A stretch of DNA of 64,000 nt from NCBI GenBank assembly GCA_040755995.1, contig JBFMAF010000055.1, forward strand, positions 224,001 through 288,000. The letters run 5' to 3'. Source of the DNA: Acidobacteriota bacterium (GTDB lineage: Bacteria; Acidobacteriota; CAIWXX01). Position 1 is the first letter of the stretch. Each line of letters starts with the position of its first letter. The notes under the pieces were generated by a model. It searched no databases. It saw only the letters and a program-made list of their open reading frames with translations, and had not been told where the DNA came from. The position numbers and the translations under genes are program-made. Below, in pieces: positions 1 to 17,394 of the stretch.

Positions 1-287
1 TCATCGACGTTGAGAGCGCAGATCGTCGTATGACCGCAGACCAGGCACACAAACACTCGATTACCGGCCGATTTGGCCTTCGCGAGGGCCGACAGCTCGT
101 CTGGCGCGAAGACGAACTGCCAAGGTGACCGCTTGGTCTTTCGGTACTTCGTGAACACCTGCCGATCCGTGTTCACGAGATAGTGCCCGTAGCGCTTGGA
201 TGCTCGGTTGAGCGCCTTGAAGGAGGGATGCTCGACGATCTGCATCAAGGCGGGGCCGTGGTAGACATCCTGCTCCTGGATCTTCAT
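1..287 (-). CDS. Hypothetical cassette protein, runs off window start (MKIQEQDVYHGPALMQIVEHPSFKALN...)
   Basis: ATG at 287 with AAGGAG RBS, open to base 1; lies directly downstream of the attI-like site and Pc promoter. Not in the supplied ORF track. Confidence 0.75.
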   Translation of the reverse strand, partial: MKIQEQDVYHGPALMQIVEHPSFKALNRASKRYGHYLVNTDRQVFTKYRKTKRSPWQFVFAPDELSALAKAKSAGNRVFVCLVCGHTTICALNVD

Positions 288-309
288 GCGCAGCTCCTTT
301 CGTCCATGC

Positions 310-366
310 GGCGAACCAATGTCTAGATGCTTTCCGGATAAACCCGGTTTCTTGCCCTTCCTTCCA
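310..366 (-). other. attI-like site, type A, copy 1
   Basis: Core GTTCGCC on minus strand; homologous to 6434-6490, with similarity stopping exactly at the AAC/GTT crossover triplet. Confidence 0.65.
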
Positions 367-367
367 G

Positions 368-396
368 ATGATACGCCGCGTAAGAAACCGCGTCAA
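368..396 (-). promoter_or_regulatory. Pc-like sigma70 promoter facing the cassette
   Basis: TTGACG-17bp-TATCAT on minus strand. Confidence 0.75.
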
Positions 397-427
397 CTTG
401 TTTGCCATCAAGGACTTGCGGAACTCT

Positions 428-943
428 TGAGGCCTTTCCAGCTTCTTGGATGGTTTCCGCATAGCATGAATCGCTTCTTTCCTCACAGGGTGTCCGCTGG
501 GCTTGGGGCCTCGCGGACTCAGAACGTCTGTATTGATAGTGCTGGTCCGGAACTGTGCGTTGCTGCCCCCTTTCTCTCCTTGGCCAGAAGCATCGACAAA
601 CCTCAAACGAAGACATCGAACTCTCTATTTGATAAGTGTCATGACCCCATGAGTATCTTGGTTTCCGTTGCCCTGGGCTCGCTTCCAAGGGCCGCGATTC
701 TATGGGAGCACCTTCCCTAACCTCCAGCCCAGACATCCCCCTGGAGGGCGAGCCCGTGTCGGCCACCTCGGTTGGGCGTGGACCGTCTCGCGGGTCTGGT
801 CGTCAACAGTGACCATGACGCCATATGCCTTGTCACTCTTGTACTTCGCCGGGACCGTGACGGTGAACCTGCTCGCCGGGGCCTCGTGGCGGAGACACGG
901 AGAGGAATCTGCTCAGTCGCCGCCGGATCGTGTCAGTCGCAGG
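428..943. repeat. Segment X copy 1 (non-transposase repeat fused to IS110 remnant)
   Basis: Diverged homology to 11123-11716 and 14876-15340; identical junction to the transposase at GGGATCGACAGCGAG. Confidence 0.8.
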
Positions 944-1549
944 GATCGACAGCGAGCTCGGTCTCGCGGATTCAATCGAGCACGTGATTCGCGAGATGGA
1001 GCAGACACTCATTCAAGCAGCATGGCAGGAGGATCGAGCTCGACTGTTGATGACGCTGTCCGGGATCGACTTCTGCGGCGCACAGTCACCGATAGCGGCG
1101 ATGGGATATCTCAGGCGGTTCGTGGATGGGGACCACTTCGCAAGCTATCTCGGGTTGGTGCCTGCGACGCGGGCGTCGGCGAATCACTGTTACCACGGGC
1201 CGATCACGAAATAGGGGCGGAGTCACACCCGATGGACGCTGATTCAGGCCGCACAGCACCTGGCCGATCATCCCGGACCGTTGGGACAGTTCTTCCGCCG
1301 GTTGCTCAAGAAGAACAATCGCAACATCCCTGTCGTGGCGGTGGCGAGGAAACTGGCCGTGATCGCGTACCACATGCTCAAGAACAACGAGCCCTACCGG
1401 TACGCACTGCCGGATTCAACCGGGCAAAAGCTGGCGCGCCTCCGATCCCAGGCGACAGGCCAAAGGCGTCTGCGAAGAGGAGACCAGCGCTGGGGGCCAA
1501 CACGGCCCCCAGTGGTCGATCACTGGAGTTGCGATCCTCAGAGGTATTC
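944..1549 (+). mobile_element. IS110-family remnant 1 (C-terminal transposase domain, nonsense codon, internal deletion, downstream end)
   Basis: FASYLGLVP..RASANHCYHGPITK*GRSH...VAVARKL motif; TAG at 1212-1214; jumps to the downstream non-coding end near 1468. Confidence 0.9.
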
Positions 1550-1568
1550 GTTGGGCCCCGCCCCACTT

Positions 1569-2069: not shown

Positions 2070-2081
2070 GTATGCCCGGGG

Positions 2082-2153
2082 GCCTAACGCGGCGGCTCAC
2101 CTGCCGGGATGAAGCGCAGCGGGATCCTGGGCAGGTGCAGCCGCTTGTTGGGC
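2082..2153 (-). other. attC site
   Basis: Minus strand GCCCAAC-AAGCGGCTGCACCTGCC...GGCAGGTGAGCCGCCGC-GTTAGGC; imperfect palindrome with the extra base in the L'' arm. Confidence 0.92.
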
Positions 2154-2306
2154 CTCCCTCAGTCTCTGCCGCCTAATCAGTCTGGGGCCTGCCAAGAGTT
2201 GCCGCTTTCGCAAATCCTCAAAAATGGCATGGACATCGTAGTTGAATTGTCTCGCGAGTTGCTCGCGTACCCGCCGAACTTCGGAAACAATCGGGTCCTC
2301 CGACAT
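2097..2306 (-). CDS. Small protein, probable partner/antitoxin of the PIN gene
   Basis: 69 aa (MSEDPIVSEVRRVREQLARQFNYDVHAIFEDLR), starts 4 bp after the PIN stop and ends inside attC. Confidence 0.7.
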   Translation of the reverse strand: MSEDPIVSEVRRVREQLARQFNYDVHAIFEDLRKRQLLAGPRLIRRQRLREAQQAAAPAQDPAALHPGR

Positions 2307-2310
2307 TGCA

Positions 2311-2781
2311 CTACCCTCCCATCAATTCTTCGGGCGTGCAGATCACCGGCATGTCGTACCCTTTCTGGTTGCACACAACTGCAACCCGCCGAATGACCTG
2401 CGCGTTGGCGAGATGCCTGCAGTTCCACGTCAACAGGTAGTCCATCTGGCTGACGGTGGCAACCGCAATGTGCGCTGCATCCCGCACAGCACTCGGTGGT
2501 ATGGCTCCGCTCTCCATGATCCTCGCTGCAAGCGATTCTGCCTCCTCTGTGACTTCAAGCACTGGGAAGTCGCTGATCATTTGGATTCGGGCCTTCGCCT
2601 CATCGGGGTCGCCAGCAGCCCCTTCATCGAGTACAACCTGGGAAACGTAGCACTCGAATTCCCGACGCCGTTCAATCCACCAGTCCTTGGTGGCCTGTTG
2701 ATGGGCCGCCACAAGAAGGTCCCGACTGGGACGAGCGACAAGATAGCTTATGAAGGTCGTCTCGATGTAAACGGTCTCCAT
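2311..2781 (-). CDS. PIN-domain (VapC-like) toxin
   Basis: VYIETTFISYL...VVLDE...DAAHIAVA...LLTWNCRHLAN PIN motifs. Confidence 0.88.
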   Translation of the reverse strand: METVYIETTFISYLVARPSRDLLVAAHQQATKDWWIERRREFECYVSQVVLDEGAAGDPDEAKARIQMISDFPVLEVTEEAESLAARIMESGAIPPSAVRDAAHIAVATVSQMDYLLTWNCRHLANAQVIRRVAVVCNQKGYDMPVICTPEELMGG

Positions 2782-2806
2782 GGTTCCACGCTATTCAATC
2801 TATTCT

Positions 2807-2942
2807 ATCACGAAGGGCCCTCCTTCCCTGGTCGAACACCGATCATCTCGGACCGTTGGGACAGTTCTTCCGAGGGTTGCCCAAGAAGAAGAATCGCAAC
2901 ATCGCCGTCGTGGCGGTGGCGAGGAAACTGGCCGTGATTGCG
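2807..2942 (+). mobile_element. IS110 remnant 2 (short internal fragment)
   Basis: GPLGQFFRGLPKKKNRNIAVVAVARKLAVIA, matching the other copies. Confidence 0.85.
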
Positions 2943-3164
2943 GCCGGCGCACGTCAGCCAGGGCACGTAGCCGATGAACGTCTGGAGTCCCCTCACCCAA
3001 GGCGACTGTTGATCGAAGATGACCTGTTCCCGTCCCATCAACCAGGCCGCAATCGCCAGCCAGTGCCACTCGAGGAGGATCAAGAGCACGAATGTGGCTA
3101 CGCCCAAGAGACCGAAGACGAGGACATCCTTCTGCTGCAGCGAAATGTTGGGCGGTTCAGTCAT
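2943..3164 (-). pseudogene. Membrane protein truncated by IS110 remnant
   Basis: Hydrophobic N-terminal ORF ([21 protein letters not shown]...) reads through into antisense IS110 sequence. Confidence 0.5.
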
Positions 3165-3169
3165 TCAGA

Positions 3170-3549
3170 TCAAAACAGAAGGAGTGCGGGTGTCGTACCT
3201 GGTTTGATTCCAGCCGTCTCCAGCCGTTGAACCAGGCGGATGATCTGTTGTCTGATTTCCTGCGCGTCGAACGGGCGGCCCTGGGCGGAAAGTAGGGTGC
3301 CTCCGAGCCGAGATCGTGCATGCCGAGCTGCCTTGAGCATCGCGTCGTGGACCGCGAGGGGGGCGGGGCTCCGCGGAACTGAATACCCGAAGACCAAATC
3401 CGCGGTGTGTACACGTCCAGCCGCGATTTCCTCGGGAAGAAGTAACCGGGAGGCGTAGAAGTCCAAACGCTGAAGAGGTGGTCTCCGCCAGACTCTCCGC
3501 TTGGATTGTCGAGATGGAAAATGTCCATGTCGCCCCAGGGCAGGCCCAA
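3170..3549 (-). pseudogene. ZipA C-terminal-like domain gene, frameshifted
   Basis: [24 protein letters not shown] / [32 protein letters not shown] is split over two frames and resembles the ZipA_C pattern. Confidence 0.55.
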
Positions 3550-3565
3550 GGAGTTTGTGAAAGCC

Positions 3566-3643
3566 GCCTGACGTCGAGCGTCACCCTCGGTTCACCTGGC
3601 GTCCGCGCCGGTTGAACGGTAGTGGTCCTCGATCTTGTTGGGA
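3566..3643 (-). other. attC site (R' variant GTCAGGC)
   Basis: Minus TCCCAAC...hairpin...GTCAGGC; the R'' TCCCAAC complements the GTTGGGA that opens the FKBP cassette. Confidence 0.75.
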
Positions 3644-4461
3644 GGTTCTCGTCTCTTTGATGCCGCCTCGTGTTCAAGCAGTTCACCTATCCACTTCAAC
3701 AGCGGCGACTCTTTCAATGCTTGGCTGGTTTCCGCCAACGAGTAGTACACGACCCACTGGCCGCGTTCCATTACTCCGATGGTTAAGCAGAGTGAGTTGG
3801 TCGCCCGATCTCTGGTGATCGCATTGCCTGACTCCGCCATGTCTGCCCATAGTTCTTCGTGTCGGAAGCAGTCCGTTGGATAGCGCTTTGGCAACGCTGC
3901 GGCGTCGACGAGGAGTGAGCGTGCCGTCTCAGCGTCCACGTTCGCGTCGAGATGTGAGTGGCTTGCGTGGCGCCAAGGCATCCCCGGAATGGAATGCGTG
4001 AGAGATACGCCAGAACGTCCGTCCTCCTCAAGACCAAATTGCCACCGAGGCTGATTGCGAGCGGCGATTCCGGGGTGAAACACGAAGAGGTGTTTGCCGG
4101 GGGGGTAGTCCTCCGGTTTTCTGACGCCTGACTCTCGGACGTCGAGGAGTTCCACGACGGCATGGATCACCGCGTTGGGCGGCACATAGCCTGGTATCCC
4201 GGATGCGCCGTAGGCCAAATGCGGACTGATCTTCAGTTCTCGGATTCCACCAACACGCATTCCCTCAATTCCGTACCTCAAACCGGCAATGCAGTCTCGT
4301 CGCTTCAGGTCTACTACCATCCGCGGGTCACCCGTGAGTGTGCCCGTCAGTTCCGTGCCGTGATTGAGAAACAAGCGGACGTTGGCGGCCACCGTCTTCC
4401 CGTGCACAGCTTCTTCGCCTGTGCCGATCACAATGTCTTTTGCCTTCACACCCGAACGCAT
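3592..4461 (-). CDS. FKBP-type peptidyl-prolyl isomerase with unknown C-terminal domain (cassette)
   Basis: DIVIGTG..IAGLRYGIEGMRVGGIRELKISPHLAYG..VPPNAVIHAVVELL; ATG at 4461 preferred because the longer start lies in attC. Confidence 0.85.
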   Translation of the reverse strand: MRSGVKAKDIVIGTGEEAVHGKTVAANVRLFLNHGTELTGTLTGDPRMVVDLKRRDCIAGLRYGIEGMRVGGIRELKISPHLAYGASGIPGYVPPNAVIHAVVELLDVRESGVRKPEDYPPGKHLFVFHPGIAARNQPRWQFGLEEDGRSGVSLTHSIPGMPWRHASHSHLDANVDAETARSLLVDAAALPKRYPTDCFRHEELWADMAESGNAITRDRATNSLCLTIGVMERGQWVVYYSLAETSQALKESPLLKWIGELLEHEAASKRREPPNKIEDHYRSTGADAR

Positions 4462-4488
4462 TCTGTCCCTACCTGCTTTCTCCGCTGT

Positions 4489-4552
4489 TCCCAACGAATA
4501 GCCTCAGCGACGCCGGCCCGTGGCCGGCGTCCAGTGGAGCGTGTTCTTGAAC
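4489..4552 (-). other. attC site with degenerate R''
   Basis: Central GACGCCGGCC/GGCCGGCGTC hairpin; R' GTTGGGA; R'' position reads GTTCAAG. Confidence 0.7.
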
Positions 4553-4616
4553 TGAGCCGCTGGCGCGCCAGTTTCGTGTTCATTCACTTCCGCCTGGGAA
4601 TCAAGCATAGTAGACC
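4547..4616 (+). mobile_element. Orphan end of tyrosine-recombinase element (copy of 17077-17146)
   Basis: TTGAACTGAGCCGCTGGCGCG...TTCACTTCCGCC.GGGAATCAA.CAT.GTAGACC shared with 17077-17146. Confidence 0.7.
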
Positions 4617-4620
4617 CCAA

Positions 4621-5041
4621 GACCACTTCGCAAGCTATCTCGGGTTGGTGCCTGCACCGCGGGCGTCGGCGAATCACTGTTACCACAGGCCGATCACGAA
4701 GCAGGGGCGCACTCATACCCGATGGATGTCGATTAAGGCGGCACAGCACCTGGCCGATCATCCCGGACCGTTGGGACAGTTCTTCCGACGGTTGCTCAAG
4801 AAGAAGAATCGCAACATCGCCGTCGTGGCGGTGGCGAGGAAGCCGGCCGTGATCGCGCACCACATGCTCAAGAACAACGAGCCCTACCGGTACGCACTGC
4901 CGGATTCAACCGGCCAAAAGCTGGCGCGCCTCCGATCCCAGACGACAGGCCAAAGGCGCAAGAGCGGACAATCGAAGGAGGCTGCCGAGAAGCGACGAGT
5001 CGGAACGCGGAGCCGCACGGTGCCCTCACTCGCAACGGTCT
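4621..5041 (+). mobile_element. IS110 remnant 3
   Basis: DHFASYLGLVP...RSRTVPSLATV; both ends truncated. Confidence 0.9.
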
Positions 5042-5053: not shown

Positions 5054-6439
5054 CTATTGGCGCCCTCGCGGCTTCAGTAGCGTTCGCAGCCTTCTTGCAA
5101 TGAGGTGTATCTGTCGGTCGGGCCTTACCGCGTTGAAGGCGAGCTCCGCACATGCGTCGACGACGCGCGCCTCATCCTGCTTCCCCCGAAGGATGCACAG
5201 CCACTCTAGGATTTGTAATATGGCAACCATCAGATGAGCCGTATGATAGGAGCTTGGCGACGAGAACTCGGTTCGCAACGCCTCAAACGCTCGTTCAGCC
5301 TCCGCGAGTTTTCCCAAGGCCAAGTAACCCCTGCAGGTCGCCCCAAGAGCGTTAAGACGCCGGTGCCAGTATTCCTGGCTGTGCGGCTCTGACTTCCACT
5401 GCTCCAGCCTGCCCTCCAGCTTCGCAAGGAGCCGAGGGACCGAGGGCAGCCCTGGTCTGCTCCACAGTGCTGGGTAGGATGCGGCATTCAGTGCCTCAGT
5501 GGCGCGAATAATCTGGTCCTTCAGCGGCCGCCTCGACGCACTGCCCTCCTCGAATAGCTTCTGGCATCTCGCCCAGTCGGCATTGGAGGGATTCTCCATG
5601 CATCGCAGGAGTTCCACGAAAGCCTTTTCATATTTGGCTACCGGCATGCTGTGGCCGTCAAGCTGCTTCAAGGCCTCCGACGCCTCCTTTGATTTGCCGA
5701 GGCGTCGGAGAACACGTGCCTTCTTCAAGACCAATTCAGGAAGAACGGCGGGTCGAACGAGGGAGATCTGACGCGAGCCGAGGAGCTCCCTTACGATCTG
5801 GAGAGCGCGGTCCGGCTCTCCGCCTTCTATGAGTCGTTCTGCATCCTGGAGGCTTCGCGACGCAATCGCCTCGGTCGGGTTAACAGTCGTGGCGAGGAGC
5901 CACTCGCGGACACCTGTCCAGGGTGGCTTGGTGTACTTGATGGCTGGGCCTGCAAGGTTCCGCACGACTGAGCACCCTCTCTTCCCGAATTGCACCGCGC
6001 CCACTCTGTCGAGTCTCCCAAAGTCCAAGAGCGTCAGGCGCAGCGGAGTGGGGCCGCGATTCCTATGCCTGCATTCGACGAGACAGAGAACAACGGGCAG
6101 ACGCTGCAGCAACCAGTATTCATGGTGGCGCTCCCTCGCGCTGAACGCGATCTTGTCCCCGGGGCGGTCGAAGCTTGCGGCGCTCGTCTTCACCTGAAGC
6201 AGGATGTGCCCCATCGGGCGCTCCGTTGCCGGTAGCTCGACTGCGGCGTCGATGCCGATGTCCTGACCGGTCAACTCTCGCCAGATGAAGCCCGTTTCGA
6301 CGGCGCAACGGTGGACGTAAGCTACGCCGAGTCGATCGATTAGATCACTACCAGGATGTTCCGGAGTATTGGCGAGTGACGCATTGCGTCGACGTTGGAT
6401 CAGCAGGCTCCCACTCTGCTCGTGGATCCGGGCGCCCAA
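5054..6439 (-). CDS. DUF4365-like PD-(D/E)xK nuclease domain plus helical/TPR-like region (start uncertain)
   Basis: LGVAYV..GFIWRE..QDIGIDAAVEL..LLQVKTS motif with an all-helical C-terminus; first gene after attI-A copy 2. Confidence 0.75.
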   Translation of the reverse strand: MGARIHEQSGSLLIQRRRNASLANTPEHPGSDLIDRLGVAYVHRCAVETGFIWRELTGQDIGIDAAVELPATERPMGHILLQVKTSAASFDRPGDKIAFSARERHHEYWLLQRLPVVLCLVECRHRNRGPTPLRLTLLDFGRLDRVGAVQFGKRGCSVVRNLAGPAIKYTKPPWTGVREWLLATTVNPTEAIASRSLQDAERLIEGGEPDRALQIVRELLGSRQISLVRPAVLPELVLKKARVLRRLGKSKEASEALKQLDGHSMPVAKYEKAFVELLRCMENPSNADWARCQKLFEEGSASRRPLKDQIIRATEALNAASYPALWSRPGLPSVPRLLAKLEGRLEQWKSEPHSQEYWHRRLNALGATCRGYLALGKLAEAERAFEALRTEFSSPSSYHTAHLMVAILQILEWLCILRGKQDEARVVDACAELAFNAVRPDRQIHLIARRLRTLLKPRGRQ

Positions 6440-6574: not shown

Positions 6575-7704
6575 GGCTGGTCTCGTGTATCGGACCGGAC
6601 GAGGGTGAAGAACCGGATCCACTCAATCCTGGCTCAACGGTTGATCGCGGTTCCCTTCAAGCAACTCTACTCACCGAAGGGGATTCAGTGGCTCCGGAAT
6701 CTGGCACTGGAGCGAGATGACCGGCAGGCGATCGACAGCGAGCTCAGGCCCCTAGATTCAATCGAGCACGAGATTCGCGAGACGGAGCAGACACTCATTC
6801 AGGCAGCATGGCAGGAGGATCGAGTTCGACTGTTGATGACGCGGTTCGGGATCGACTTCTGCGGCGCACAGTCATTGATAGAGGCGATGGGAGATCTCAG
6901 CCGATTCACGGATCGGGACCACTTCGCAAGCCATCTCGGGTTGGTGCCGTCGACGGGGGCGTCAGCGAATCACTGTCACCACGGGCCGATCACGAAGCAG
7001 GGGCGGAGTCAAACCCGATGGATGTTGATTCAGGCTGCACAGCACCTGGCCGATCATCCCGGACCGTTGGGACAGTTCTACGGAGGGGTGCCCAAGAAGA
7101 AGAATCGCAACATCGCCGTCGTGGCGGTGGCGAGGAAGCTGGCCGTGATCGCCTACCACATGCTCAAGAACAACCAGCCCTACCGGTACGCAATGCCGGA
7201 TTCAACCGGGCAAAAGCTGGTGCATCTCCGATCCCAGGCGACAGGCCAAAGGCGCAGGACCGGACCATCGAAGGAAGCTGCCGAGAACCGACGGGTCGGA
7301 GCGCAGAGCCGCACGGTGCCCTAACTCGCAACGGTCTACCAGCGTGAGGGAGTGCCCGCACTCCGAGCCCCCGAGTCGCTGCCGGCTGGCGAGAAGCGCA
7401 TGATCGAGGAACGCAAACTTCGACCGTTCAACCAGACTATCGACACCGCGCAAAGACACGAACAGAAGAGCCCCCACCGGCCGAATGCAGTCGCGAGTGT
7501 GAACTGAGATGAGAGATCTGCTGCGCCTCGACGACACGAGCCGACAGGCTCCTGAACATGACGCATCGAGGGCCCGCAACGACCGAGGCTCCCGTCTGCC
7601 AGGCTCACCGAATCAAGGATTCGTCTGTCAAGAAGAGACCACCGCTGGGGGCCTGTACGGCCCCCAGTGGCCGATCACAGGAGTTGCAATCCTCAGAGGT
7701 ATTC
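6575..7704 (+). mobile_element. IS110 remnant 4 (longest; no N-terminal DEDD domain, premature stop, about 200 bp downstream non-coding end)
   Basis: RTRVKNRIHSILAQ...ARKLAVIAYHMLK; TAA at 7322-7324; natural stop at 7505-7507. Confidence 0.92.
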
Positions 7705-7712: not shown

Positions 7713-8564
7713 CTACTTCCGCAAATCCGGTACAAGCTCTGAGAGCCTTAACGATGGCTTCATCTTCCGAGGCCATTGAATCCCTCTCCTGGGTGTCCTC
7801 GTCCAGAAGCTTATCTTGTACTGCTCCAAGTCAAAGTGGACCTTGACGTCGTCGTTCTTGCCGTGAGCGTGATCGGATCTGCACGTCAGAAGAAGCGGAA
7901 CACCGAGACCGTGAGCAAACCCAACCTCGAAGTAGACTGATGGTCTTGCATACGTGAGGTCGGCGATTGCACAAGCACACTCCGTGATGCCCTCCAGAAT
8001 CGCCTCGGTAATGGTCTGCTTGGGTTCGGTCATATCTACTCGCACAGGCTCGTAACCCAAACTGGCGCATGCCGGAGCAAGTTGGTTGTCGTAAAGCATG
8101 TCTATATCCGAATGACCGAATGCACAAGCCACAAAGACGTTGGCTCGCCGCTCTGGCGCCGGGCGGAGAACGAGTCGCCGCTCCTCCTTGATGCTATTGG
8201 CAACTCGCTTGCCTTCGTGGGTGAGTTCAACAGCGACTTCTGAGAGGCTCCCATACGGAAGTAATAGCTTCTCCCCTGTGTCGCGCCGCGCCAAACCTGT
8301 ATAGCCTGGCCTCTGGATGAGCCCAACGGCAATGAGACCTTCCACAGTTCGCTCAAGCTCGGACAGCTTCGGCCTGTCAAGCGCGAAAAAGCGATCTTCC
8401 CGCGCTCTGTCCGCGACGACCCGAATAAAGGCGGAGAAATCCGACTCGGCAAAATCAACTGCCTTTACGACTCGCTGCAATGTCGGGAATGGGATGCTGC
8501 CCGTCTCCCCGAGTATGCGAAGCACCAATCTCTGGGGCCGATTCAATCGGATGTTGACTTTCAT
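7713..8564 (-). CDS. Nucleoside 2-deoxyribosyltransferase/TIR-like C-terminal domain protein (cassette)
   Basis: VFVACAF..GYEPVRVD..IADLTYARPSVYFEVGFAHGLG..HFDL motif. Confidence 0.8.
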   Translation of the reverse strand: MKVNIRLNRPQRLVLRILGETGSIPFPTLQRVVKAVDFAESDFSAFIRVVADRAREDRFFALDRPKLSELERTVEGLIAVGLIQRPGYTGLARRDTGEKLLLPYGSLSEVAVELTHEGKRVANSIKEERRLVLRPAPERRANVFVACAFGHSDIDMLYDNQLAPACASLGYEPVRVDMTEPKQTITEAILEGITECACAIADLTYARPSVYFEVGFAHGLGVPLLLTCRSDHAHGKNDDVKVHFDLEQYKISFWTRTPRRGIQWPRKMKPSLRLSELVPDLRK

Positions 8565-8579
8565 TCAGGTTCCTCATTG

Positions 8580-8638
8580 CTTCAACGTCGCGGATCACGC
8601 GCGGCTACAAGCCGTCGCGTGCATCCGGCTTGTTGGGC
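8580..8638 (-). other. attC site (59 bp)
   Basis: Minus GCCCAAC-AAGCCGGATGCACGCG...CGCGTGATCCGCGAC-GTTGAAG. Confidence 0.92.
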
Positions 8639-8640
8639 AC

Positions 8641-9381: not shown

Positions 9382-9395
9382 GATGTTCCCTCTAT

Positions 9396-9452
9396 GCCCA
9401 ACGTACGGCTCACCGGTGAGCGAAGCGAATGCAGGGCAGCCGATTGATGGGC
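9396..9452 (-). other. attC site (R'' variant GCCCATC)
   Basis: Minus GCCCATC-AATCGGCTGCCC...GGTGAGCCGTAC-GTTGGGC. Confidence 0.8.
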
Positions 9453-9472
9453 GCCGACTTCCACACCAGCTC

Positions 9473-10426
9473 TCAGTGCTCCCAGCGATCCCGGAGTTCG
9501 ATCAAGATATCCGCCAAATGGCTCTCGAACGCTCTATAGAGGTTCTCCACAAGTTCTCCACTAGCGACGACTGGAGGAGATTCTGGCAGAGGACCAACGC
9601 ACTCGATGATCAACCTGCCAGAAGCGTCGCTGATCGCATGCTTCTCCGTCACGCCGTCGTCAGAAGAAAATGAGGCACTTGCTTGTTGGCTGCCGCCAAT
9701 GGCCGGAAGCACGCAGTGCCACACAGGCACGGAGCGTCGAAGGGAGACTCTGGAAACGCCAGCCAAGACAGCGGAATCCGATGACTGGGAGCCAGTCACC
9801 TTCCGGTGTGTGGAGGCCAACACAGGGGCAACGTAATGGGTGATTTCGTCCCTTCGACTTATCAGCTGGCCAGCCCATCCGTCAAGCGCATCCGAAACAA
9901 GGGTAGATATCCTGTCGCCGGAGCCGAACATGTTGCGTAGCTTGGCGTACCGATGCACACCGACTTTTCCGAGGGAGTAACTAGCGACGAGTCGCGCAAG
10001 ATGGTCAAGGGTACTTCGCATTGAAGAAAGCAGCGCTTCAAATTCCGACTCAAGTCTCGCATCTTGGAGAGAGATCGTGAACGAGGCGTTGGCATTCGGA
10101 AGTAACGAACCGACGTCGTCTCCTGAGGAATCGGTGGTCCCTCGTTTCTCGACCTCGGCAAACCGTGATTCGTGCTCGCTGAGGACCTCCCTCCACCGTT
10201 CGAGACGGTATCTAGATCCCACCAGCTTGCGATACAGGCTCGCCACTCGTGCTAGGTACTCCTCTAGCGCTACGTGAATGAGTTCGGGAGCGGCGCCACC
10301 TCGCGGGATAATCCTATCGATTAGCAGGTCAAGACGACTGAATTCGGCCGGAGCAGATAGCGTCTCGTGCGTTGTGTTGGGTTGCAGGGATATCTTGGAA
10401 AGGAGTTGGTCGATCATATTGGCCAT
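9473..10426 (-). CDS. HEPN-like (Cthe_2314-type) protein (cassette)
   Basis: RSTLDHLARLV and RDEITHY (Rx4H) motifs. Confidence 0.65.
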   Translation of the reverse strand: MANMIDQLLSKISLQPNTTHETLSAPAEFSRLDLLIDRIIPRGGAAPELIHVALEEYLARVASLYRKLVGSRYRLERWREVLSEHESRFAEVEKRGTTDSSGDDVGSLLPNANASFTISLQDARLESEFEALLSSMRSTLDHLARLVASYSLGKVGVHRYAKLRNMFGSGDRISTLVSDALDGWAGQLISRRDEITHYVAPVLASTHRKVTGSQSSDSAVLAGVSRVSLRRSVPVWHCVLPAIGGSQQASASFSSDDGVTEKHAISDASGRLIIECVGPLPESPPVVASGELVENLYRAFESHLADILIELRDRWEH

Positions 10427-10484: not shown

Positions 10485-10650
10485 GCCCAACAATGATTAG
10501 ATTGATCCGCATAGGATGCGGAACTTCACTTTCCTCCCGGTATCGCACACCGCTGATTCATCTGGCAGTTTCGCGATAACCCCTTCTGTTTCGGTCGCTT
10601 CTGCCCTATGCTTTGACTCATCCTCCAATCCTATGCGGATCGGCATAACC
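10485..10650 (-). other. attI-like site, type B, copy 1 (downstream of co-directional intI)
   Basis: GTTGGGC core at 10491-10485; homologous to 14255-14420 up to the AAC; 14-bp inverted repeat 10504-10517/10628-10641. Confidence 0.75.
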
Positions 10651-10664
10651 ACCTCCTCGTTGCC

Positions 10665-11027
10665 TCAAAGTCCCTCAACCGGGCTGCGTACGCCGGCCGG
10701 GCCACGGTTGAGGACATGGGTATAGATCATCGTCGTCGAAACGTCGCTGTGACCTGGGAGTTCCTGGGTGGCCCGCCCGGGTTGCCCTGCGCGATGGCCC
10801 ACCGAGTTCACCGGACCAAGTGAAGGGTGCACCTCCACCGGTTCTCCCGCGAAGAGGTTGAGGAGTCGAGGTAGCATCCCCTCGGTGTCCAGCACTGTCC
10901 AATAGCTCTCTTCGGGATGCCAGCGCCGATCATGGATAGTCTTGATCTTCTCCACTCGTTGCCACTCATACGGCACGATCACTCTCAACCGCCCCCTGGG
11001 TCCTGGATCAATGACCACAGAACTCAT
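10665..11027 (-). pseudogene. intI: Integron integrase with large internal deletion
   Basis: C-terminus [29 protein letters not shown] fused to an N-terminal extension; catalytic core missing. Confidence 0.88.
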
Positions 11028-11044
11028 CGCTGCGAACTCCCTGC

Positions 11045-11073
11045 ATTCTGAACAGAGGCGACGAATGTGTCAA
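11045..11073 (-). promoter_or_regulatory. Candidate intI promoter
   Basis: TTGACA-17bp-CAGAAT, 17 bp upstream of the ATG. Confidence 0.6.
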
Positions 11074-11122
11074 CAAGGCTTGCCCATGCCCGTCGAGCCG
11101 GCGAGCATTCGCGCGACTCCTC

Positions 11123-11716
11123 ATGGCTTTCCGGCGGCTTAGATGGTCTCTACATGACATGCGTCGCTTCTTTCCTCACAAGGTGCCCGCCGGGCTTCTG
11201 GCCCCTCGGCCTCCGAGATTCAGAAGGTTCCTGTTGATCATGTTTGTCCGCAACGGCACGTTGCTGCCCCCCTCCTCTCCCTCGCCAGAAGCATCGACAA
11301 GCCCGAAACCAAGGCATGGACTCCTCTCCTACAAATAAATAGTGTCGTGACCCCATGGGTATCTTGGCGTCCCTTGACTTCGGCTCGCTTCCAGGGGCCG
11401 GGATTTTACGGGTTCACCTTTCCTGACCTCCAGCCCCGGCATCCCCCCGGGGGGCGCGCCCGTGTGGGCAACCTGGTTTCGGCGTGGACGGCATCGTCTC
11501 GCTGGTCTGGCCGTCAACCGTGACCATGACGCCGTATGCCTTGTCACTCTTGCACTTCGCCGGGTTCCTGACGGTGAACCTGCTCGTCGAGGCCTTATGG
11601 GGTTGATCGGGCGAACAGCGGGGACGCCTCGCGATGCCGGACTAGGCGCCCGGGCCTCGTGGCGGACGCACGGAGAGCAGTCTGCTCAGTCGCCGCCGGA
11701 TAGTGCCAGTCGCCGG
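11123..11716. repeat. Segment X copy 2
   Basis: Homologous to 428-943 and 14876-15340. Confidence 0.8.
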
Positions 11717-12399
11717 GATCGACAGCGAGCTTAGGCTCCTGGATACAATGGAGCACGAGATTCGCGAGATGGAGCAGACACTCATTCAAGCAGCATGGCA
11801 GGAGGATCGAGTTCGACTGTTGATGACGCTGTCCGGGATCGACTTCTGCGGCGCACAGTCGCCGGTTGCGACGATGGGAGATCCCAGGCGGTTCGAGGAT
11901 GCGGACCACTTCGCAAGCTATCTCGGGTTGGTGCCTGCGACGCGGGCGTCGGCGAATCACTGTTACCACGGGCCGATCACGAAGTAGGGGCGGAGTCACA
12001 CCCGATGGACGCTGATTCAGGCCGCACAGCACCCGGCCGATCATCCCGGACCGTTGGGACAGTTCTTCCGACGGTTGCTCAAGAAGAAGAATCGCAACAT
12101 CGCCCTCGTGGCGGTGGCGAGGAAGCTGGCCGTGATCGCGTCCCACATGCTCAAGAACAACGAGCCCTACCGGTACGCGCTGCCGGATTCAACCGGGCAA
12201 GAGCTGGCGCATCTCCGATCCCAGGCGACAGGCCAAAAACGCAAGACCGGACCATCGCAGGAAGCTGCCGAGAAGCGACGCGTCGGAACGCGGAGCCGCA
12301 CGGTGCCCTCACTCGCAACGGTCTACCAGCGTGAGGGAGTGCCCCTACTCCGAGCCCCAGAATCGCCGCCGCCTGGCGAGAAGCGAATGATCGAGGAAC
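11717..12399 (+). mobile_element. IS110 remnant 5
   Basis: Same transposase segment; TAG at 11985-11987 at the same codon as remnant 1. Confidence 0.9.
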
Positions 12400-12470: not shown

Positions 12471-12512
12471 TTGTAACGACAGGCATGACGCGCGAGAAAT
12501 GGCACGTTCCCC
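12471..12512 (-). other. Partially deleted attC
   Basis: Minus GGGGAAC...GCGCGTCATGCCTGTC-GTTACAA; right arm typical, left arm missing. Confidence 0.55.
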
Positions 12513-12515
12513 GCA

Positions 12516-14201
12516 CTATTTCTCGTCGCTGTCCATGCCTTCGTTAGATTGTATTTCGACCAGGCCTCTTTCGAGGAGGGCCTGAAACGCTTCCTGCCTC
12601 CTGTGTTCGTCGCTCGCCTTCATCATTCTGAGGCCCACATCTCGAAAGCACTCGCTGGACAGGCCATGGCCAATGTCCGCGCCGGCCAACGTGATTTTCA
12701 AATACTCCCGATAAAATGGGACCTCGTGAGACAATGAACCAGTAGCTTCCAAAACATTACACACCGCACTGAACGTCCTTCTTGCTGATTTCCTGGTAAT
12801 GCGCAATGTAGTGCACCAGAGAAGAGGTCTCAGCACGTAATCCAACACCCATTCTTCCATAGCTATGAGGGGGAGTCCTTCATGATTCTTACTATGATTC
12901 GCGATTCGATCTATCAGGGCGACAACACGAGGCGCAATCGCTCCAGATTCACGCCTCGGGCCGTCAATGCGGTCAAAGAGGAGTGCGTCAATTTCCCGGA
13001 ACATAACCTCCAAGTCACCTATTCCCATCACCCCTCGAAGCCTATCTATGCCGGAGGCCCCAGTAACTACCTTTGCTGAGGCGAGGATATAGTCGGCTCT
13101 TTCCTCTAAGAGATGCATCCTTTCTTTGTAAGGGAGAATCTCAGTTTCCAAACCCCGAGCGAACACCTTGGCCCGCGTGACCTCCGAAAAGGCGCGGACC
13201 ATTTGGCTATGCGGATAGTAAAGGCGTAGATGAATCGGATCACGAAGAGCGCAAAGCTCCACAATAGAACGTTGCTTAGCGTTGAGAGAGCCCCAGCGTC
13301 TCTCGAACCAAGGGTATCCTAAACTTAAGATGCTAGCGTCCGGTTCTTCTCCAACAATGTGAAACAATTCATCACACACATAACCGGTCGGTTCATTCTC
13401 CGCAAGATGGAGCAGCATGTACATCCCGTTCGCTCGCTTATCAGAATCGGAAAGGCCACAAAAAAACAGCGCGGAAGAAACAAGGAAGGCGAATTCCCGT
13501 TCAGAAAAGGCCGAAAGCTTTGCATTCTCGATGAGCATTTGCCGCGCCGCCATAAGCTGTTGCGGATGACTTAGGTTGTCGCCATCTTCCACCGAATATG
13601 CCACCCACCGCAGCGTCCTCGAGTTGATATCCTCTCTTCCCTCCTTATCCTTGATAACGGCTTCGCATGCGGATTTTGCGTCATCTGCTTTCGGCGCTCT
13701 CAGTTGATGGCCAGTGCTCCAATCAGTATTGAACGGTAGGCGATTACCGTTCCGTACCTCAACTGACAGCCGATCCAGTTCATCTTGGTGGTAGCACTCG
13801 AAATATGGTGTGTCAGAAAGACTATCAGGTACGACCGAATGTGGGACCATATGTGCAACCATTACCCTTGACGCTGACGCTTGTCTTTCGACTTCAATCG
13901 CAGGCAGATATTCTGCGCGGCACCACACTGAATCGCGAAAACGATCATCGACGGACAATACTACAAAGCGAGAGCGAATCAGAGCCGAGCTCACCACTTC
14001 TTGAACTCTTCGATCGCGTAGATCTTGATCATCATCATGCCAAACCATGACGCCGCGGGCGCCAAGTTCTTGAGCAAGCCTCTTCGAGTGTTCGTCTCCT
14101 CTGTTATGACTAATGAACGCATCGAACTGAAACGAACGGTCACCGTATTCTTTCGACCATGAAACTGGGAGAAACGGATGCAAATCTATGTGCCCGATCA
14201 T
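12516..14201 (-). CDS. TIR-domain protein with long helical C-terminus
   Basis: FDAFISHN..GVMVWHD..ALIRSRFVVLSV..SVWCRAEY TIR motif including the catalytic-position Glu. Confidence 0.85.
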   Translation of the reverse strand: MIGHIDLHPFLPVSWSKEYGDRSFQFDAFISHNRGDEHSKRLAQELGARGVMVWHDDDQDLRDRRVQEVVSSALIRSRFVVLSVDDRFRDSVWCRAEYLPAIEVERQASASRVMVAHMVPHSVVPDSLSDTPYFECYHQDELDRLSVEVRNGNRLPFNTDWSTGHQLRAPKADDAKSACEAVIKDKEGREDINSRTLRWVAYSVEDGDNLSHPQQLMAARQMLIENAKLSAFSEREFAFLVSSALFFCGLSDSDKRANGMYMLLHLAENEPTGYVCDELFHIVGEEPDASILSLGYPWFERRWGSLNAKQRSIVELCALRDPIHLRLYYPHSQMVRAFSEVTRAKVFARGLETEILPYKERMHLLEERADYILASAKVVTGASGIDRLRGVMGIGDLEVMFREIDALLFDRIDGPRRESGAIAPRVVALIDRIANHSKNHEGLPLIAMEEWVLDYVLRPLLWCTTLRITRKSARRTFSAVCNVLEATGSLSHEVPFYREYLKITLAGADIGHGLSSECFRDVGLRMMKASDEHRRQEAFQALLERGLVEIQSNEGMDSDEK

Positions 14202-14254
14202 GCCGAAACCTCAAGAACAAAAATACGTCACTACTCCCGACACCACACCAAGCG

Positions 14255-14420
14255 ATCTAACAATAACTAGATTGATCCGCATAAGGTGCGGGACTTCGCT
14301 TTGGTGCCGGTATCGCAGGCCGCTGATTCATCTGGCGGTTTCGCGACAACCCCTTCTGTTTCAGTCATTTGTGTGCTATCCTTTGACTTGTCCTCCGATC
14401 TTATGCGGATCGGCATAACA
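14255..14420 (-). other. attI-like site, type B, copy 2
   Basis: GTTAGAT core; homologous to 10485-10650. Confidence 0.75.
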
Positions 14421-14434
14421 ACCTCCTCGTTGCC

Positions 14435-14873
14435 TCAATGTCCGTCAACCGGGCTGCGTACGCCGGCTGGGCCGCGGCTGAGGGCATGGGTATAGATCAT
14501 CGTCGTCGAAACGTCGCTGTGGCCTGGGAGTTCCCGGACCGTGCGGATATCGCACCTGCTTTTGACCGAGTGGGTGGCGAAGGAACGGTCGAAGGTGTTG
14601 CACGTAGCCCTCTTGGTCAAGCCAGCGTTCACCACCACTGCGTCCCCGACGGCTTTCTGAATGAGCGATTCACCCACATGGTGCCGTCCTTCCTCACCGG
14701 TCTTCCGGTTCCTCCGCCGGTTCTCCTGCGGAAAGATCCATTGCCACCGCCAGTCCTTCGACGCAGTGGGGTACTTGCGGTCGAGGGCATCCGGCAACAG
14801 GACGCGACCCTAGCTTTCCAGCAGGTCCCGTTCGTGGACCATCTTGACTGTCTTGAGATGCTCCTGAAGCGGG
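14435..14873 (-). pseudogene. intI: Integron integrase C-terminal half, inactivated
   Basis: [42 protein letters not shown] (integron-specific insertion)..[25 protein letters not shown]; stop codon present and HxxR lost. Confidence 0.92.
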
Positions 14874-14875
14874 TG

Positions 14876-15340
14876 TCCCTCGCCAGAAGCATCGACAAGC
14901 ATGAAACCAAGGCATCGACTGCTCTCCTACAATTAATAAGTGTCGTGACCCCCTGGGTATCTTGGCATCCGTTCACCTCGGCTCGCTTCCAAGGGCCGCG
15001 ATTCTACGGCTTCACCTTTCCTACTAGCCTCCAGCCCCGGCATCCCCCCTAGGGGGGCGATCCCGTGTGGGCAACCTCGTTTCGGCGTGGACGGCATCGT
15101 CTCGCTGGTCCGGCCGTCAACCGTGACCATGACGCCATATGCCTTGTCACTCTTGCACTTCGCCGGGATCGTGAGGGTGAACCTGCTCGTCGGGGCCTTA
15201 TCGGGTTGATCAGGCGAACAGCGGGACCCCCTCCCGCGGTGTCGCCGACGCGCCGCCATGCCGAGTGAAACGCCCGGGCCTCGTGGCGGAGGCACGGAGA
15301 GGAGTCTGCTCAGTCGCCGCCGGATGGTGTCAGTAGCAGG
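14876..15340. repeat. Segment X copy 3 (left-truncated)
   Basis: Begins TCCCTCGCCAGAAGCATCGAC as at 11278; same junction to IS110. Confidence 0.8.
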
Positions 15341-16315
15341 GATCGACAGCGAGCTCAGGCTCCTGGATTCAATCCAGCACGAGATTCGCGAGATGGAGCA
15401 GACACTCATTCAAGCAGCATGGCAGGAGGATCGAGTGCGACTGTTGATGACGCTGTCCGGGATCCATTTCTACGGCGCACAGTCACTGATAGCGGCGATG
15501 GGAGATCCCAGACGGTTCCAGGATGGGGACCACTTCGCAAGCTATCTCGGGTTGGTGCCGTCGACGCGGGCGTCGGCGAATGGCTATTACCACGGGCCGA
15601 CCACGAAGCAGGGGCGGAGTCACACCCGATGGATGTTGATTCAGGCCGCACGGCACCTGGCCGGTCATCCCGGTCCGTTGGGACAGTTCTTCCGACGGCT
15701 GCTCAAGAAGAAGAATCGCAACATCGCCGTCGTGGCGGTGGCGAGGAAGCCGGCCGCAATCGCGTACCACATCCTCAAGAACAACGAGCCCCACCGGTAC
15801 GCACTGCCGGATTCAACCGGGGAAGAGCTGGCGCGCCTCCGATCCCAGGCGACAGGCCAAAGGCGCAAGACCGGATCATCGAAGGAAGCTGCTGGGAAGC
15901 GACGGGTCGGAACGCGGAGCCGCACGGTGCCCTCACTCGCAACGGTCTACCAGCGCGAAGGAGTGCCCGGACTCCGAGCCCCAGAGTCGCTGCCGGCTGG
16001 CGAGAAGCGCATGATCGAGGAACGCAAACTTCGACCGTTCATCAAGAGTATCAACACCGCCCAAAGACGCGAGCAGAAGAGCCCCCAGCGGACGAATGCA
16101 AACGCGAGTGGGAACTGAGATGAGAGATCTGCTGAGCCTCGACGACACCAGCCGGCAGGCTCCTGACCAAGACGCATGGATGACCCGCAACGACCGAGGC
16201 TCCCGTCTGTCAGGCCCACCGAATCACGGATACGTCTGTCAAGAAGAGCCCAGCGCTGGGGGCCAGCACCGCCCGCGGTGGCCGATCACCGGAGTTGCAG
16301 TCCTCAGAGGTGCTC
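15341..16315 (+). mobile_element. IS110 remnant 6 with downstream non-coding end
   Basis: Open C-terminal transposase frame to TGA 16118; downstream end matches 7508-7704. Confidence 0.92.
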
Positions 16316-16349
16316 GTTGGCGCACCCTGAATGTACCCAGGTGGATGGC

Positions 16350-16991
16350 TCAGCTCCTCAGCTTGCTTTCTCTGCTAATGTCTATCAAAGAAAACGTCCT
16401 GATGACTTCAGTCGCAATCTGTCTGATGGACGGCGGAACGGGGTCATTCAGAGGAGACTTCTCGCCCGTTGCGCTTCTTATCCACCATCCGGCTGTGTTT
16501 TGTCGGCTCAGATCATAGTATTTCTCGTCAAGAGAGGCATCGACATGTGCTCCGCCATCCCGGTCAGCTGTTTCCAGGATGAGCCTCTTGCGGGTGAAGG
16601 ACTCTTTGTTCTGATCGACAATTACCTTCTTGCGGTTCCACCAGTTGTCGATGCTCACGAGGTTGTAACTGGGGTTGTCGGAAGGCACGTATGTGATCTC
16701 TTTGTCCGGCATGTCTACTCGAGTGCTCAACAAGCCCAAATGGGTTAGAAGATTCTCCGGATCGTACGGCCGACAGGTATCTACAATGCTGATGTGCTCC
16801 AATTTCAATAGCCGGAGCAGAGACTTCTGGTTGTTCGTGTTGCTGAAAATAAGCCGGATCTTTACGGCCATGTCCTGGGCGTAGTGGTACTCCCCACGGT
16901 CGTACAATTCGCAAAGGCCGGAAAGTTTGTTGACCTGATCTGAGAGCTTGTTCACGAGTTCAACTTTTGTTACTGGCTTCTTGGTGTCCAT
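16350..16991 (-). CDS. Hypothetical cassette protein, possible HEPN-like RNase
   Basis: 213 aa, lower GC, good RBS; ADRDGGAHVD motif; flanked by complementary GTTGGGCGCACCC / GGGTGCGCCAAC. Confidence 0.7.
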   Translation of the reverse strand: MDTKKPVTKVELVNKLSDQVNKLSGLCELYDRGEYHYAQDMAVKIRLIFSNTNNQKSLLRLLKLEHISIVDTCRPYDPENLLTHLGLLSTRVDMPDKEITYVPSDNPSYNLVSIDNWWNRKKVIVDQNKESFTRKRLILETADRDGGAHVDASLDEKYYDLSRQNTAGWWIRSATGEKSPLNDPVPPSIRQIATEVIRTFSLIDISRESKLRS

Positions 16992-17044
16992 GATATCTCC
17001 TCATCCTGAGGCCTCACCGATGAGAATCATTTCCGATTGGGTGC

Positions 17045-17082
17045 GCCCAACACCGCGGGTCAGCTGCATCCGCTTGTTGAAC
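17045..17082 (-). other. attC site with central deletion
   Basis: Minus GTTCAAC-AAGCGGATGCAGCTGACCCGCGGT-GTTGGGC; only 38 bp. Confidence 0.65.
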
Positions 17083-17394
17083 TGAGCCGCTGGCGCGGCG
17101 GGTTGCTGATCCTTCACTTCCGCCGGGGAATCAACCATGGTAGACCGCCCGTGTCCTTTCCGATGAGCCGTATCGCTGTCCCCGTTTCTCAGGAGGTCCA
17201 CTATGTCTACACTCCGCGGACGTATGATCGAAGACATGCAGCTTCCCGGGCTTTCACCTCGCACGCAGCAGCCCTATGCCCGAGCGGTCGGCAAGCTAGC
17301 CGAGCACCATCATAGGTCTCCGGACCTGATCACGCAAGATCAAACGCGACTGGACCGCCGTCAATCTGGTCAAGCCCAAGCTTCGACCTCCTGA
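17077..17394 (+). mobile_element. Element end plus truncated tyrosine recombinase N-terminus (SAM-like domain, ATG 17203)
   Basis: MSTLRGRMIEDMQLPGLSPRTQQPYARAVGKLAEHHHRSPDLIT, of the integrase type often paired with IS91-like transposases; AGGAGG RBS. Confidence 0.8.

Follow-up and report, generated by a model that had tools for sequence, protein, structure and literature searches.

What is known of integron biology is based mostly on Vibrio and on the clinical class 1 elements. Several described systems come close to the locus analysed here, and the following points are taken from the passages of the cited papers that deal with them. In Treponema, the integrase gene intI is co-oriented with the cassettes and attI lies downstream of the intI stop codon (PMC3607928). 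About one third of intI genes are pseudogenes, some of which arose by duplication within a genome, and one integrase clade is about 120 amino acids (aa) longer (Nemergut et al. 2008, PMC2426708). Insertion sequences (IS) are present in a fourth of the complete integrons of the IntegronFinder survey (PMC4889954). Elements of the IS1111 type carry a long non-coding region downstream of tnp (the gene for the transposase), which encodes a seekRNA, together with subterminal repeats (Siddiquee et al. 2024, PMC11187229). In the Delta-attI-type cassettes, short attI fragments replace attC in class 1 and class 2 resistance integrons (Gonzales Machuca et al. 2026, PMC12901181). Here we describe an array of integron pieces and IS remnants in an Acidobacteriota bacterium (GenBank assembly GCA_040755995.1, 7.7 Mb in 56 contigs). 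The stretch analysed, called the window, is 64,000 nucleotides (nt) long and corresponds to positions 224001-288000 of contig C55 (JBFMAF010000055.1). An earlier note, made from the sequence alone, had read the array as a higher-order cassette collector. We found that the array is explained by ordinary, known processes and is not a new kind of system; the locus is probably a decayed, partly duplicated and transposon-invaded chromosomal integron, i.e. an ordinary system that has been scrambled.

IS remnants, integron heads and the copied block

The array extends over about 19.5 kb, from window position -2090 to 17394, and plus-strand IS remnants alternate in it with minus-strand gene cassettes (Table 1). 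It is located well within a 433-kb contig and is flanked by unrelated single-copy genes. At 17394, a deletion fuses a recombinase stub to a PMT_2 glycosyltransferase gene (17414-19693), and the other border adjoins a STAND ATPase-TPR gene. The head that belonged to the array itself is missing. A repeat search of positions 1-20000 gave families of 4-6 direct copies with 85-93% identity, at the positions given in the earlier note. The copies were related to each other by a self-BLAST of C55 from 200 to 245 kb, which also revealed a seventh IS copy. Altogether there are seven plus-strand remnants of one IS1111-type (IS110) element, six in the window (starting at 944, 2839, 4621, 6575, 11717 and 15341) and copy 0 upstream of it at -2047..-1323. 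Between the remnants, the open reading frames (ORFs) of the minus-strand cassettes stand in runs of 1-3 and are separated by attC-like imperfect palindromes. The alternation described earlier was therefore recovered, at or near the starts given before (2839 instead of 2807).

The longest remnant, copy 3, begins at about residue 150 of the transposase and consists of an open frame of 239 codons followed by 383 nt of non-coding sequence, the complete relatives having 433-453 residues. Its right end is ...CCTCAGAGGTA-TTC. The right end of the element, ...CAGAGGTA, is similar to those of complete relatives, in which subterminal repeats are present. The ends of these relatives are of like style (GTACC...; ...AGGTA), non-coding sequence of some length lies downstream, and the relatives do not lie in attC sites. 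The IS1111 layout is partly seen here, with the 383 nt downstream of tnp and the relative-like right end, and a candidate left end is present only in G001, a genome of the same family. All three distinct right-end junctions in the genome have the form GAGGT(A/G)-(T/C)TC-GTT, with the boxes GTTGGGC, GTTCGAA and GTTGGCG, and after each box comes the stop codon of a minus-strand cassette gene, a different one at each junction. The IS lies next to the AAC of the R'' box and runs antisense to the cassettes in every case, and the TTC can be assigned either to the IS or to its target. Insertion at one attC end in a single orientation, as in the IS1111-attC group, is seen at these three junctions, with all remnants on the plus strand; the public run X1 (see below) adds two weak junction types. 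Because insertion beside the R'' box of attC is orientation-specific, the remnants have the plus orientation in common. Therefore, no collector is needed for the same orientation.

All seven remnants start at or beyond about residue 150. Five independent 5' truncations cover all of them, and three remnants also lack the 3' part. When six plus-strand ORFs were submitted, Transposase_20 was found in three (60.8, 64.3 and 31.8 bits), and the others had no family at all. The DEDD N-terminal domain (PF01548) has a single match genome-wide, which lies on C24 and not in the array. When the longest remnant was used as a protein query, C55 gave eight matches, which are the seven remnants with copy 0 split by a frameshift, and the rest of the genome gave one, a full-length 453-codon frame on C24 with 55% identity. 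The dN/dS values (ratios of non-synonymous to synonymous substitution) among the stubs are 0.41-1.10 in 15 pairs, at a divergence of 7-12%, and reflect mostly neutral decay after inactivation. An intact copy was found neither in the genome nor in 185,579 species representatives (best identity 53-55%). The 18-nt word of the right end matched five stretches of metagenome contigs, of which four are chance matches and one has 26 similar bases, and no intact IS was among them. The plasmid records matched number 271, all below 60% identity, the best among those listed having 36-41%; as far as this plasmid search shows, the IS appears to be a lineage apart from the clinical attC-targeting IS. G001 holds pieces of the same IS, with cassette-like genes around them. 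One of the pieces (L034 on G001 contig C344, 948-2010, minus strand) is a complementary remnant, which keeps the DEDD N-terminal half, is cut on its 3' side and carries the candidate left end TACCTCGTATGAGTATTGCC.

For the integrase, the model TIGR02249 (integron integrase, cut-off 265 bits) was used. It exceeded the cut-off only once genome-wide, on C36 (468.7 bits), in a gene with one in-frame TAA. In the array there are two partial minus-strand matches, one of 177.1 bits (model positions 171-313, interrupted by a TAG) and one of 45.9 bits. The TIGR02249 search thus found no intact intI in the genome, and the array is without the integrase of a complete integron. The search for an intact intI and IS110 elsewhere in the genome, which had been suggested earlier, gave only this C36 gene with its TAA and the 55% relative on C24. 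The decay of the integrases claimed in the earlier note was confirmed, since only stubs are left in the array, and the attI sites persist.

Downstream of intI on C36, its strand carries about 175 nt that end in ...TCTAATTATT|GTTAGGC, and then two cassettes with attC sites. In an alignment of five loci (both array stubs, C36, C34 and C33), the approximately 175 nt from the intI stop to ATT|GTT are alike and the sequences then diverge, in 5/5. Because the homology covers the stretch between the intI stop and ATT|GTT and goes no further, we regard these sites as genuine attI sites, which belong to integrons whose intI gene points at attI. The locus, in a soil-type bacterium, is a region of a sedentary chromosomal integron with this layout, attI and the cassettes lying in the direction of intI transcription. 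The first cassettes at the two internal attI sites differ (GTTGGGC at 10489 and GTTAGAT at 14259), and both are joined exactly at G|TT; therefore, cassettes were inserted at each of the two sites. Two attI-like types with two copies each had been claimed. One type was indeed found twice, at 10489-10664 and 14259-14434. The second was not found as such and is probably the promoter-leader repeat described below.

We also note the following on the integrases. The near-complete gene at C36:325640-326932 (L002 5640-6932), the only one of its kind in the genome, has an N-terminal extension of about 115 aa that belongs to no Pfam family. This extension is kept in stubs on C55 (module 5), C47 and C34, with a dN/dS of about 0.4 between heads. 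Three intI stubs (window 10665-11027; L003 8281-8665; L005 82-486) have lost the catalytic core and have kept the 5' region, the last codons and attI. L003 (C34:80001-97000) also holds a sulfate adenylyltransferase-like gene in one full and two partial copies (4167-5435, 8784-9035, 10461-11213), interleaved with an integron head and minus-strand cassettes, and looks like another duplicated, cassette-bearing region.

At their 5' border, IS copies 1, 5 and 6 break at the same base (944, 11717 and 15341), before GATCGACAGCGAGCTC, and the same sequence, called 'up' here, then follows; in copies 0 and 3 the IS sequence continues at that border. In modules 5 and 6, 'up' leads to an intI stub and an attI, both of which are deleted in module 1. 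It has no Pfam family, and elsewhere in the genome only 66 nt of it were found, on C34. The heads of modules 5 and 6 are 88-89% identical to each other and 74-80% (about 78%) identical to the heads on C36, C34, C47 and C33. Because of the identical breakpoint between IS and 'up', and because modules 5 and 6 are closest to each other, the three modules (1, 5 and 6) appear to descend from one block. The several platforms seen in the earlier note are thus paralogues of one block, two with heads and a third as a headless stub, and the repeated capture of heads from other integrons, proposed there, reduces to one event that was later copied.

Copy 1 is a mosaic. It has the 5' junction of copies 5 and 6, but the internal deletion (reference 7254 to 7622) and the cassette A of copy 0. 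Together with cassette A it is 93.8% identical to copy 0 with its cassette A' over 1157 nt, and the similarity ends exactly at the R' box GTTAGGC. Copies 1 and 5, in turn, have a 184-nt tract of 98.4% identity between flanks of 90.6% and 92.2%. The mosaic copy and this conversion tract are therefore signatures of homologous exchange between IS stubs, and the suggestion that the IS-derived repeat acted as a recombination anchor holds.

Cassettes, attC sites and a second transposon

The attC sites were called with a relaxed local pattern plus fold scan and by inspection by eye. There are four complete and two truncated sites in the array. For each cassette the first and last boxes are complementary, e.g. 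GTTAGAT...ATCTAAC and GTTGGGC...GCCCAAC, and the same applies to the three cassettes of module 5. The cassette top strand was assigned by the rule for extrahelical bases in attC; because of the extra base of the attC at 2082-2153 and the strand of the ORFs, it is the minus strand. An attC cluster without integrase (CALIN) is what the array represents. The long minus-strand frames between the remnants encode 561 aa (TIR_2), 461 aa (DUF4365+TPR), 317, 300 (FKBP_C), 283, 246, 213, 166 and 156 aa. The two copies of cassette A, i.e. A and A', differ with a dN/dS of 0.39, which is computed from just 19 changes (10 non-synonymous and 9 synonymous). Domains that are frequent in anti-phage defence were seen in four cassettes, namely a DUF4365/Aga-type nuclease N-domain with TPR (5054-6439), a TIR-like Nuc_deoxyrib_tr fold (7713-8564), a TIR_2 domain with a long C-terminal region (12516-14201) and PIN (2311-2781). 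PADLOC gave only weak, domain-level matches, for 3/13 proteins. Rfam at its gathering thresholds gave no match in the window.

Two of the cassette genes are headed by a promoter-leader repeat of about 100 nt. It consists of a promoter close to the sigma-70-type consensus (TTGACG/TTGACA-17-TATCAT/TACTAT), the spacer of which is conserved, and of about 65 further conserved bases in the transcribed part. The repeat occurs at nine loci of the genome before unrelated genes, the seven others being C38:63781, C28:59887, C56:10966, C4:107028, C31:35194, C36:105187 and C9:40617. Two other readings of it were considered. It was rejected as a structured RNA, as no consensus RNA fold was found for the repeat, and as an attI, in view of its dispersal before unrelated genes at the seven further loci.

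The earlier note had also reported two attC sites joined to the end of a recombinase element. Both were found, at 4546-4616 and at 17076-17146, the second one with a tyrosine-recombinase stub of 63 codons at 17203 (Phage_int_SAM_4, 27.8 bits against a cut-off of 27). The underlying repeat, D13, spans 4544-4616 and 17074-17146. Relatives of the stub occur in 28/400 other genomes sampled from the phylum, at times with 9-11 copies per genome. The IS91 family includes a subgroup with a tyrosine recombinase gene before the Y2 transposase. In the complete relatives of our stub, Phage_int_SAM_4 and Phage_integrase are followed by Zn_Tnp_IS91 and Y2_Tnp (Y2_Tnp 190.9 and 171.7 bits). For example, G392 has nine near-identical copies (L066-L074) of a 2564-bp element with a tyrosine recombinase and a Y2_Tnp transposase, and in G116 (L075) the recombinase is paired with Zn_Tnp_IS91/Y2_Tnp. 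Y2_Tnp is not present in the window, where only the left end and the 63 recombinase codons remain. The terminus G(T/C)TG(A/G)ACT with a hairpin lies 120-190 nt before the gene in 7/7 relatives compared and in 9/9 of the G392 copies. Because the complete relatives begin with this same motif and hairpin, D13 can be assigned to the left terminus of an IS91-family element. Two other assignments of D13 were rejected, the first as the left end of the IS1111-type element, of whose right end it holds no inverted repeat, and the second as another attI of a divergent integrase, since it is the conserved IS91-like terminus.

In five insertions from four genomes, the left end comes immediately after an attC in which nothing but the R''-side box is missing, i.e. 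twice in the window and once each in G116, G230 (L076, at 822) and G017 (L077). This insertion point in attC is the point where the IS1111-type element sits, at the same GTT. With the sequence GTTGAAC, the left terminus has the form of a GTTRRRY box. On the right, the elements of G116 and G392 carry the complementary box and a hairpin, and the flanks of the G392 right ends begin with GTT(A/G) in 8/8, the ninth locus being without a comparable right end. The element may therefore carry a cassette-like site and home to attC. An ordinary IS91 element has a hairpin and a target of the GTTC/CTTG type, and the terminal features may equally be read in this way.

Table 1. Features of the array in window coordinates (ref, reference coordinates of the IS alignment)
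Feature	Position	Strand	Remarks
Cassette ORF	1..287, continuing to about -140 outside the window	-	promoter-leader repeat 309-412 upstream
Promoter-leader repeat	309..412 and 6432-6535	-	heads the ORFs that start at 287 and at 6439
'up' segment of module 1	423..943	-	sequence upstream of intI in modules 5/6; intI and attI deleted here
IS remnant copy 1	944..1549	+	5' breakpoint as copies 5/6; internal deletion (ref 7254->7622) as copy 0
Copy 1 right end	intact, adjoins GTTGGGC 1550-1556	+	GTTGGGC is the R'' box of cassette A
Cassette A, 166 aa	1569..2069	-	second copy A' at -1306..-803; homology stops exactly at R' box GTTAGGC
attC, canonical	2082..2153	-	GCCCAAC...GTTAGGC in minus reading; extra base on 5' arm of minus reading
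PIN-like cassette	2097..2781	-	PIN-like gene 2311-2781 (PIN 21.5 bits, below cut-off 23.6) and 69-aa ORF 2097-2306
IS remnant copy 2	2839..2945	+	internal 107-nt piece, both sides cut
Membrane-protein ORF, N-terminal part	2946..3164	-	presumably truncated by IS copy 2
FKBP-domain cassette	3592..4494	-	FKBP_C 53.7 bits; likelier start ATG at 4461
attC without R'' box	4489..4545	-	R'' box replaced by IS91-like element end
IS91-like left end (repeat D13)	4546..4616	+	about 71 nt, then cut by IS fragment 4621
IS remnant 4621	4621..5041	+	both sides cut; ref 6917-7337
DUF4365 + TPR gene	5054..6439	-	headed by second promoter-leader repeat 6432-6535
IS remnant copy 3 (longest)	6575..7704	+	intact right end, adjoins GTTCGAA 7705-7711
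Three cassettes of module 5 (283, 246, 317 aa)	7713..10426	-	attCs at 8580-8638 and 9397-9457
attI of module 5	10489..10664	-	homology with four other attI sites stops at ATT|GTTGGGC
intI stub of module 5	10665..11027	-	N-terminal extension fused to last ~35 codons; open frame 120 aa
'up' segment of module 5	11028..11716	-	promoter-like site at 11073-11045
IS remnant copy 5	11717..12399	+	common 5' breakpoint; 3' side cut
TIR-domain cassette (ORF 12516-14201)	12471..14260	-	joined to attI at G|TTAGAT
TIR cassette attC	12471-12549	-	begins with ATCTAAC, exact complement of GTTAGAT
attI of module 6	14259..14434	-	just downstream of intI stub
intI stub of module 6	14435..14875	-	model positions 171-313, one TAG
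'up' segment of module 6	14876..15340	-	intI-proximal 250 nt missing
IS remnant copy 6	15341..16315	+	common 5' breakpoint; intact right end, adjoins GTTGGCG 16316-16322
Cassette ORF, 213 aa, no family	16350..16991	-	
attC remainder, short	17045..17075	-	GCCCAAC...CCGCTT in plus reading; joined to IS91-like end
IS91-like element	17076..17394	+	left end GTTGAAC and hairpin; recombinase stub 17203-17394; cut off by deletion reaching PMT_2 gene

Origin of the array

If the locus is a scrambled ordinary integron, its history may be outlined as follows. An IS1111-type element would have entered cassette attC sites repeatedly, next to the conserved AAC/GTT of their R'' box and with the same orientation each time. 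A deletion would have removed the 5' part of one copy and joined the rest of it to the sequence upstream of an intI-attI head. By homologous recombination among the IS copies, the block of IS stub, 'up', intI and attI would have been copied at least three times, and the IS stub with cassette A once. Cassettes would have entered each of the two surviving internal attI sites, presumably by an integrase acting in trans. Later deletions may have taken away the original array head and the 5' side of every IS and left the integrases as stubs, and two attC sites would have received, at the same GTT, another transposon, which belongs to the IS91 family and has a tyrosine recombinase.

Several points weigh against this history. 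Firstly, no close relative with the locus was found among the same-family genomes examined (n=2), in which the two flanking genes of the array were not found either. When the module DNA was compared with 40 other genomes, 13/40 gave matches, which consist only of conserved intI parts and short IS pieces. The conclusions do not depend on G025 and G048, two genomes flagged as unpublished. Secondly, the junctions are known from the assembly alone. X1 is the only public run with any of the stretch (share of words 0.06). Its contigs are 85-95% like the window and derive from related organisms, so the run gives no support for or against the assembly, and window parts without X1 cover carry no meaning. 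In the X1 contigs, the IS right end is joined to the IS91 terminus or to attI, the PIN cassette is likewise joined to the IS91 terminus, and the cassette at 412 meets the attI crossover at 10485. These joints are weak, with sides of 24-77 nt and a likeness below 95% in related organisms; they hint that the same parts may recombine in the population, by shuffling between strains rather than in cis.

Thirdly, the attC sites were called by eye with a simple fold filter and not with the covariance model of IntegronFinder, and a strict genome-wide attC screen by pattern plus fold gave 52 scattered matches and no clusters; the attC boxes of this genome are too degenerate for a strict filter. Fourthly, all five independent IS lineages are without the 5' part and no left end is kept, which random deletion does not predict. 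Finally, the deletion junction of the module 5 stub is that of the C34 stub, though the two are only 78% identical. The C47 intI stub has a similar but different deletion, and the module 6 stub keeps codons that the module 5 stub has lost. Because of these kept codons, we infer that the deletions in module 5 and C34 are recurrent events between an imperfect repeat of 8-10 nt; alternatively, the common junction may stem from a head that was copied from one locus to the other after it had undergone the deletion.

Four further readings of the array were considered. The first sees in the array a multi-entry integron that combines several functions. The orphan attI sites would be live docking sites served in trans, the intI and 'up' stubs would be kept to restart transcription behind transposon-blocked attC sites, and the R''-side GTT would be the landing pad of two unrelated parasites. 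In addition, the IS91/tyrosine-recombinase element would be a self-mobilising giant cassette that begins with a GTTRRRY box and closes with an attC-like site. We consider this combination unlikely.

The second is the collector of the earlier note, in which the locus repeatedly gained the promoter-proximal heads of other integrons through homology of the IS repeat and became a multi-promoter cassette store. The IS stubs do recombine, the genome holds at least four further integron heads as potential donors, the module 5 stub and the C34 head have their deletion junction in common, and the X1 contigs of related organisms combine the same parts in other ways, weak as those joints are. However, the breakpoint between IS and 'up' is identical in all three modules, and in all the segments that modules 5 and 6 have in common they resemble each other more than they resemble any other head. 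A donor with 'up' was not found elsewhere in the genome, apart from the 66 nt on C34. Moreover, the promoter scan found two sites where 2.2 are expected by chance, and only module 5 keeps a promoter-like site before its intI stub, so that promoter retention is not above chance. A collector is quite improbable in the light of these relations.

Excision and re-insertion of whole heads by the integrase, between two attC sites and with intI co-oriented with the cassettes, would make the heads giant cassettes. The duplicated block with cassette A does end exactly at the R' crossover point, and the internal attI sites carry different first cassettes at G|TT, therefore site-specific recombination acted within the array. 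The upstream border of the head modules, on the other hand, is an IS right end by the R'' box and then an internal IS breakpoint, and not a G|TT crossover, which leaves this reading with a still smaller probability. Least probable of all is an assembly artefact, i.e. strain variants of one short integron in a metagenome joined into a false tandem array. The assembly does have 56 contigs, the likeness among the repeats (88-94%) is of the degree usually met in strains that occur together, and the junctions come from the assembly alone. However, the modules differ in their cassettes and in unique deletion junctions, the array is placed centrally in a 433-kb contig with unrelated single-copy genes on either side, copies with 90% identity offer no long exact words to mislead an assembler, and remnants of this IS recur in G001 next to genes that look like cassettes.

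As a scrambled ordinary integron, the locus is a natural record of the breakdown and reshuffling of a co-oriented chromosomal integron outside Proteobacteria. Two features are noteworthy, i.e. the orphan attI sites with different cassettes and the two unrelated transposons at the R''-side GTT of attC. With different cassettes at the G|TT of two sister attI sites, a direct test of whether an integrase acts in trans becomes possible. On its R'' side, attC has a weak spot that is the target of two unrelated transposon families, and in the literature searched neither transposon lineage is described as attC-targeting, nor was a paper found on IS91-type elements in attC sites. If it is true that the IS91/tyrosine-recombinase element uses an attC-like end, rolling-circle transposons would be linked with cassette recombination.

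Comparison with known systems

As in the introduction, the likenesses to published systems refer to the relevant passages of the papers cited. The IS is closest in its habits to the IS1111-attC group (ISKpn4, ISPst6, ISPa25), as in both there are the C-terminal half Transposase_20, a long non-coding region and insertion at one attC end in a single orientation (PMC11187229). In contrast to that group, the host belongs to another phylum, the best plasmid relatives listed have only 36-41% identity, and the best relatives in species-representative genomes (53-55%) are not in attC; here, an intact copy, a left end and the DEDD domain are missing.

In the type of Treponema denticola, a single strand carries intI, attI and the cassettes, and attI stands past the intI stop (PMC3607928), as at our locus. 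The differences are the N-terminal extension of about 115 aa without a Pfam family, the several heads per genome and the two heads in one array. The extension recalls the integrase clade that is about 120 aa longer (PMC2426708). With the CALIN and the intI pseudogenes described before, the array has in common an attC cluster without a working integrase, nearby intI pseudogenes and IS inside (PMC4889954, PMC2426708). Our literature search found no description of two attI-bearing integrase stubs within one cassette array. The Delta-attI-type cassettes are alike in that attI-derived sites stand in the variable region and are still recombined (PMC12901181), whereas here the whole attI, the integrase stubs and the upstream DNA were copied together with an IS stub. 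The IS91/tyrosine-recombinase subgroup, finally, is represented by the complete relatives, which have the recombinase and then Zn_Tnp_IS91 and Y2_Tnp. The element described here is set apart by its ends, since its left end is a GTTRRRY box that replaces the R'' box of attC, and its right end has the complementary box and a hairpin, like attC.

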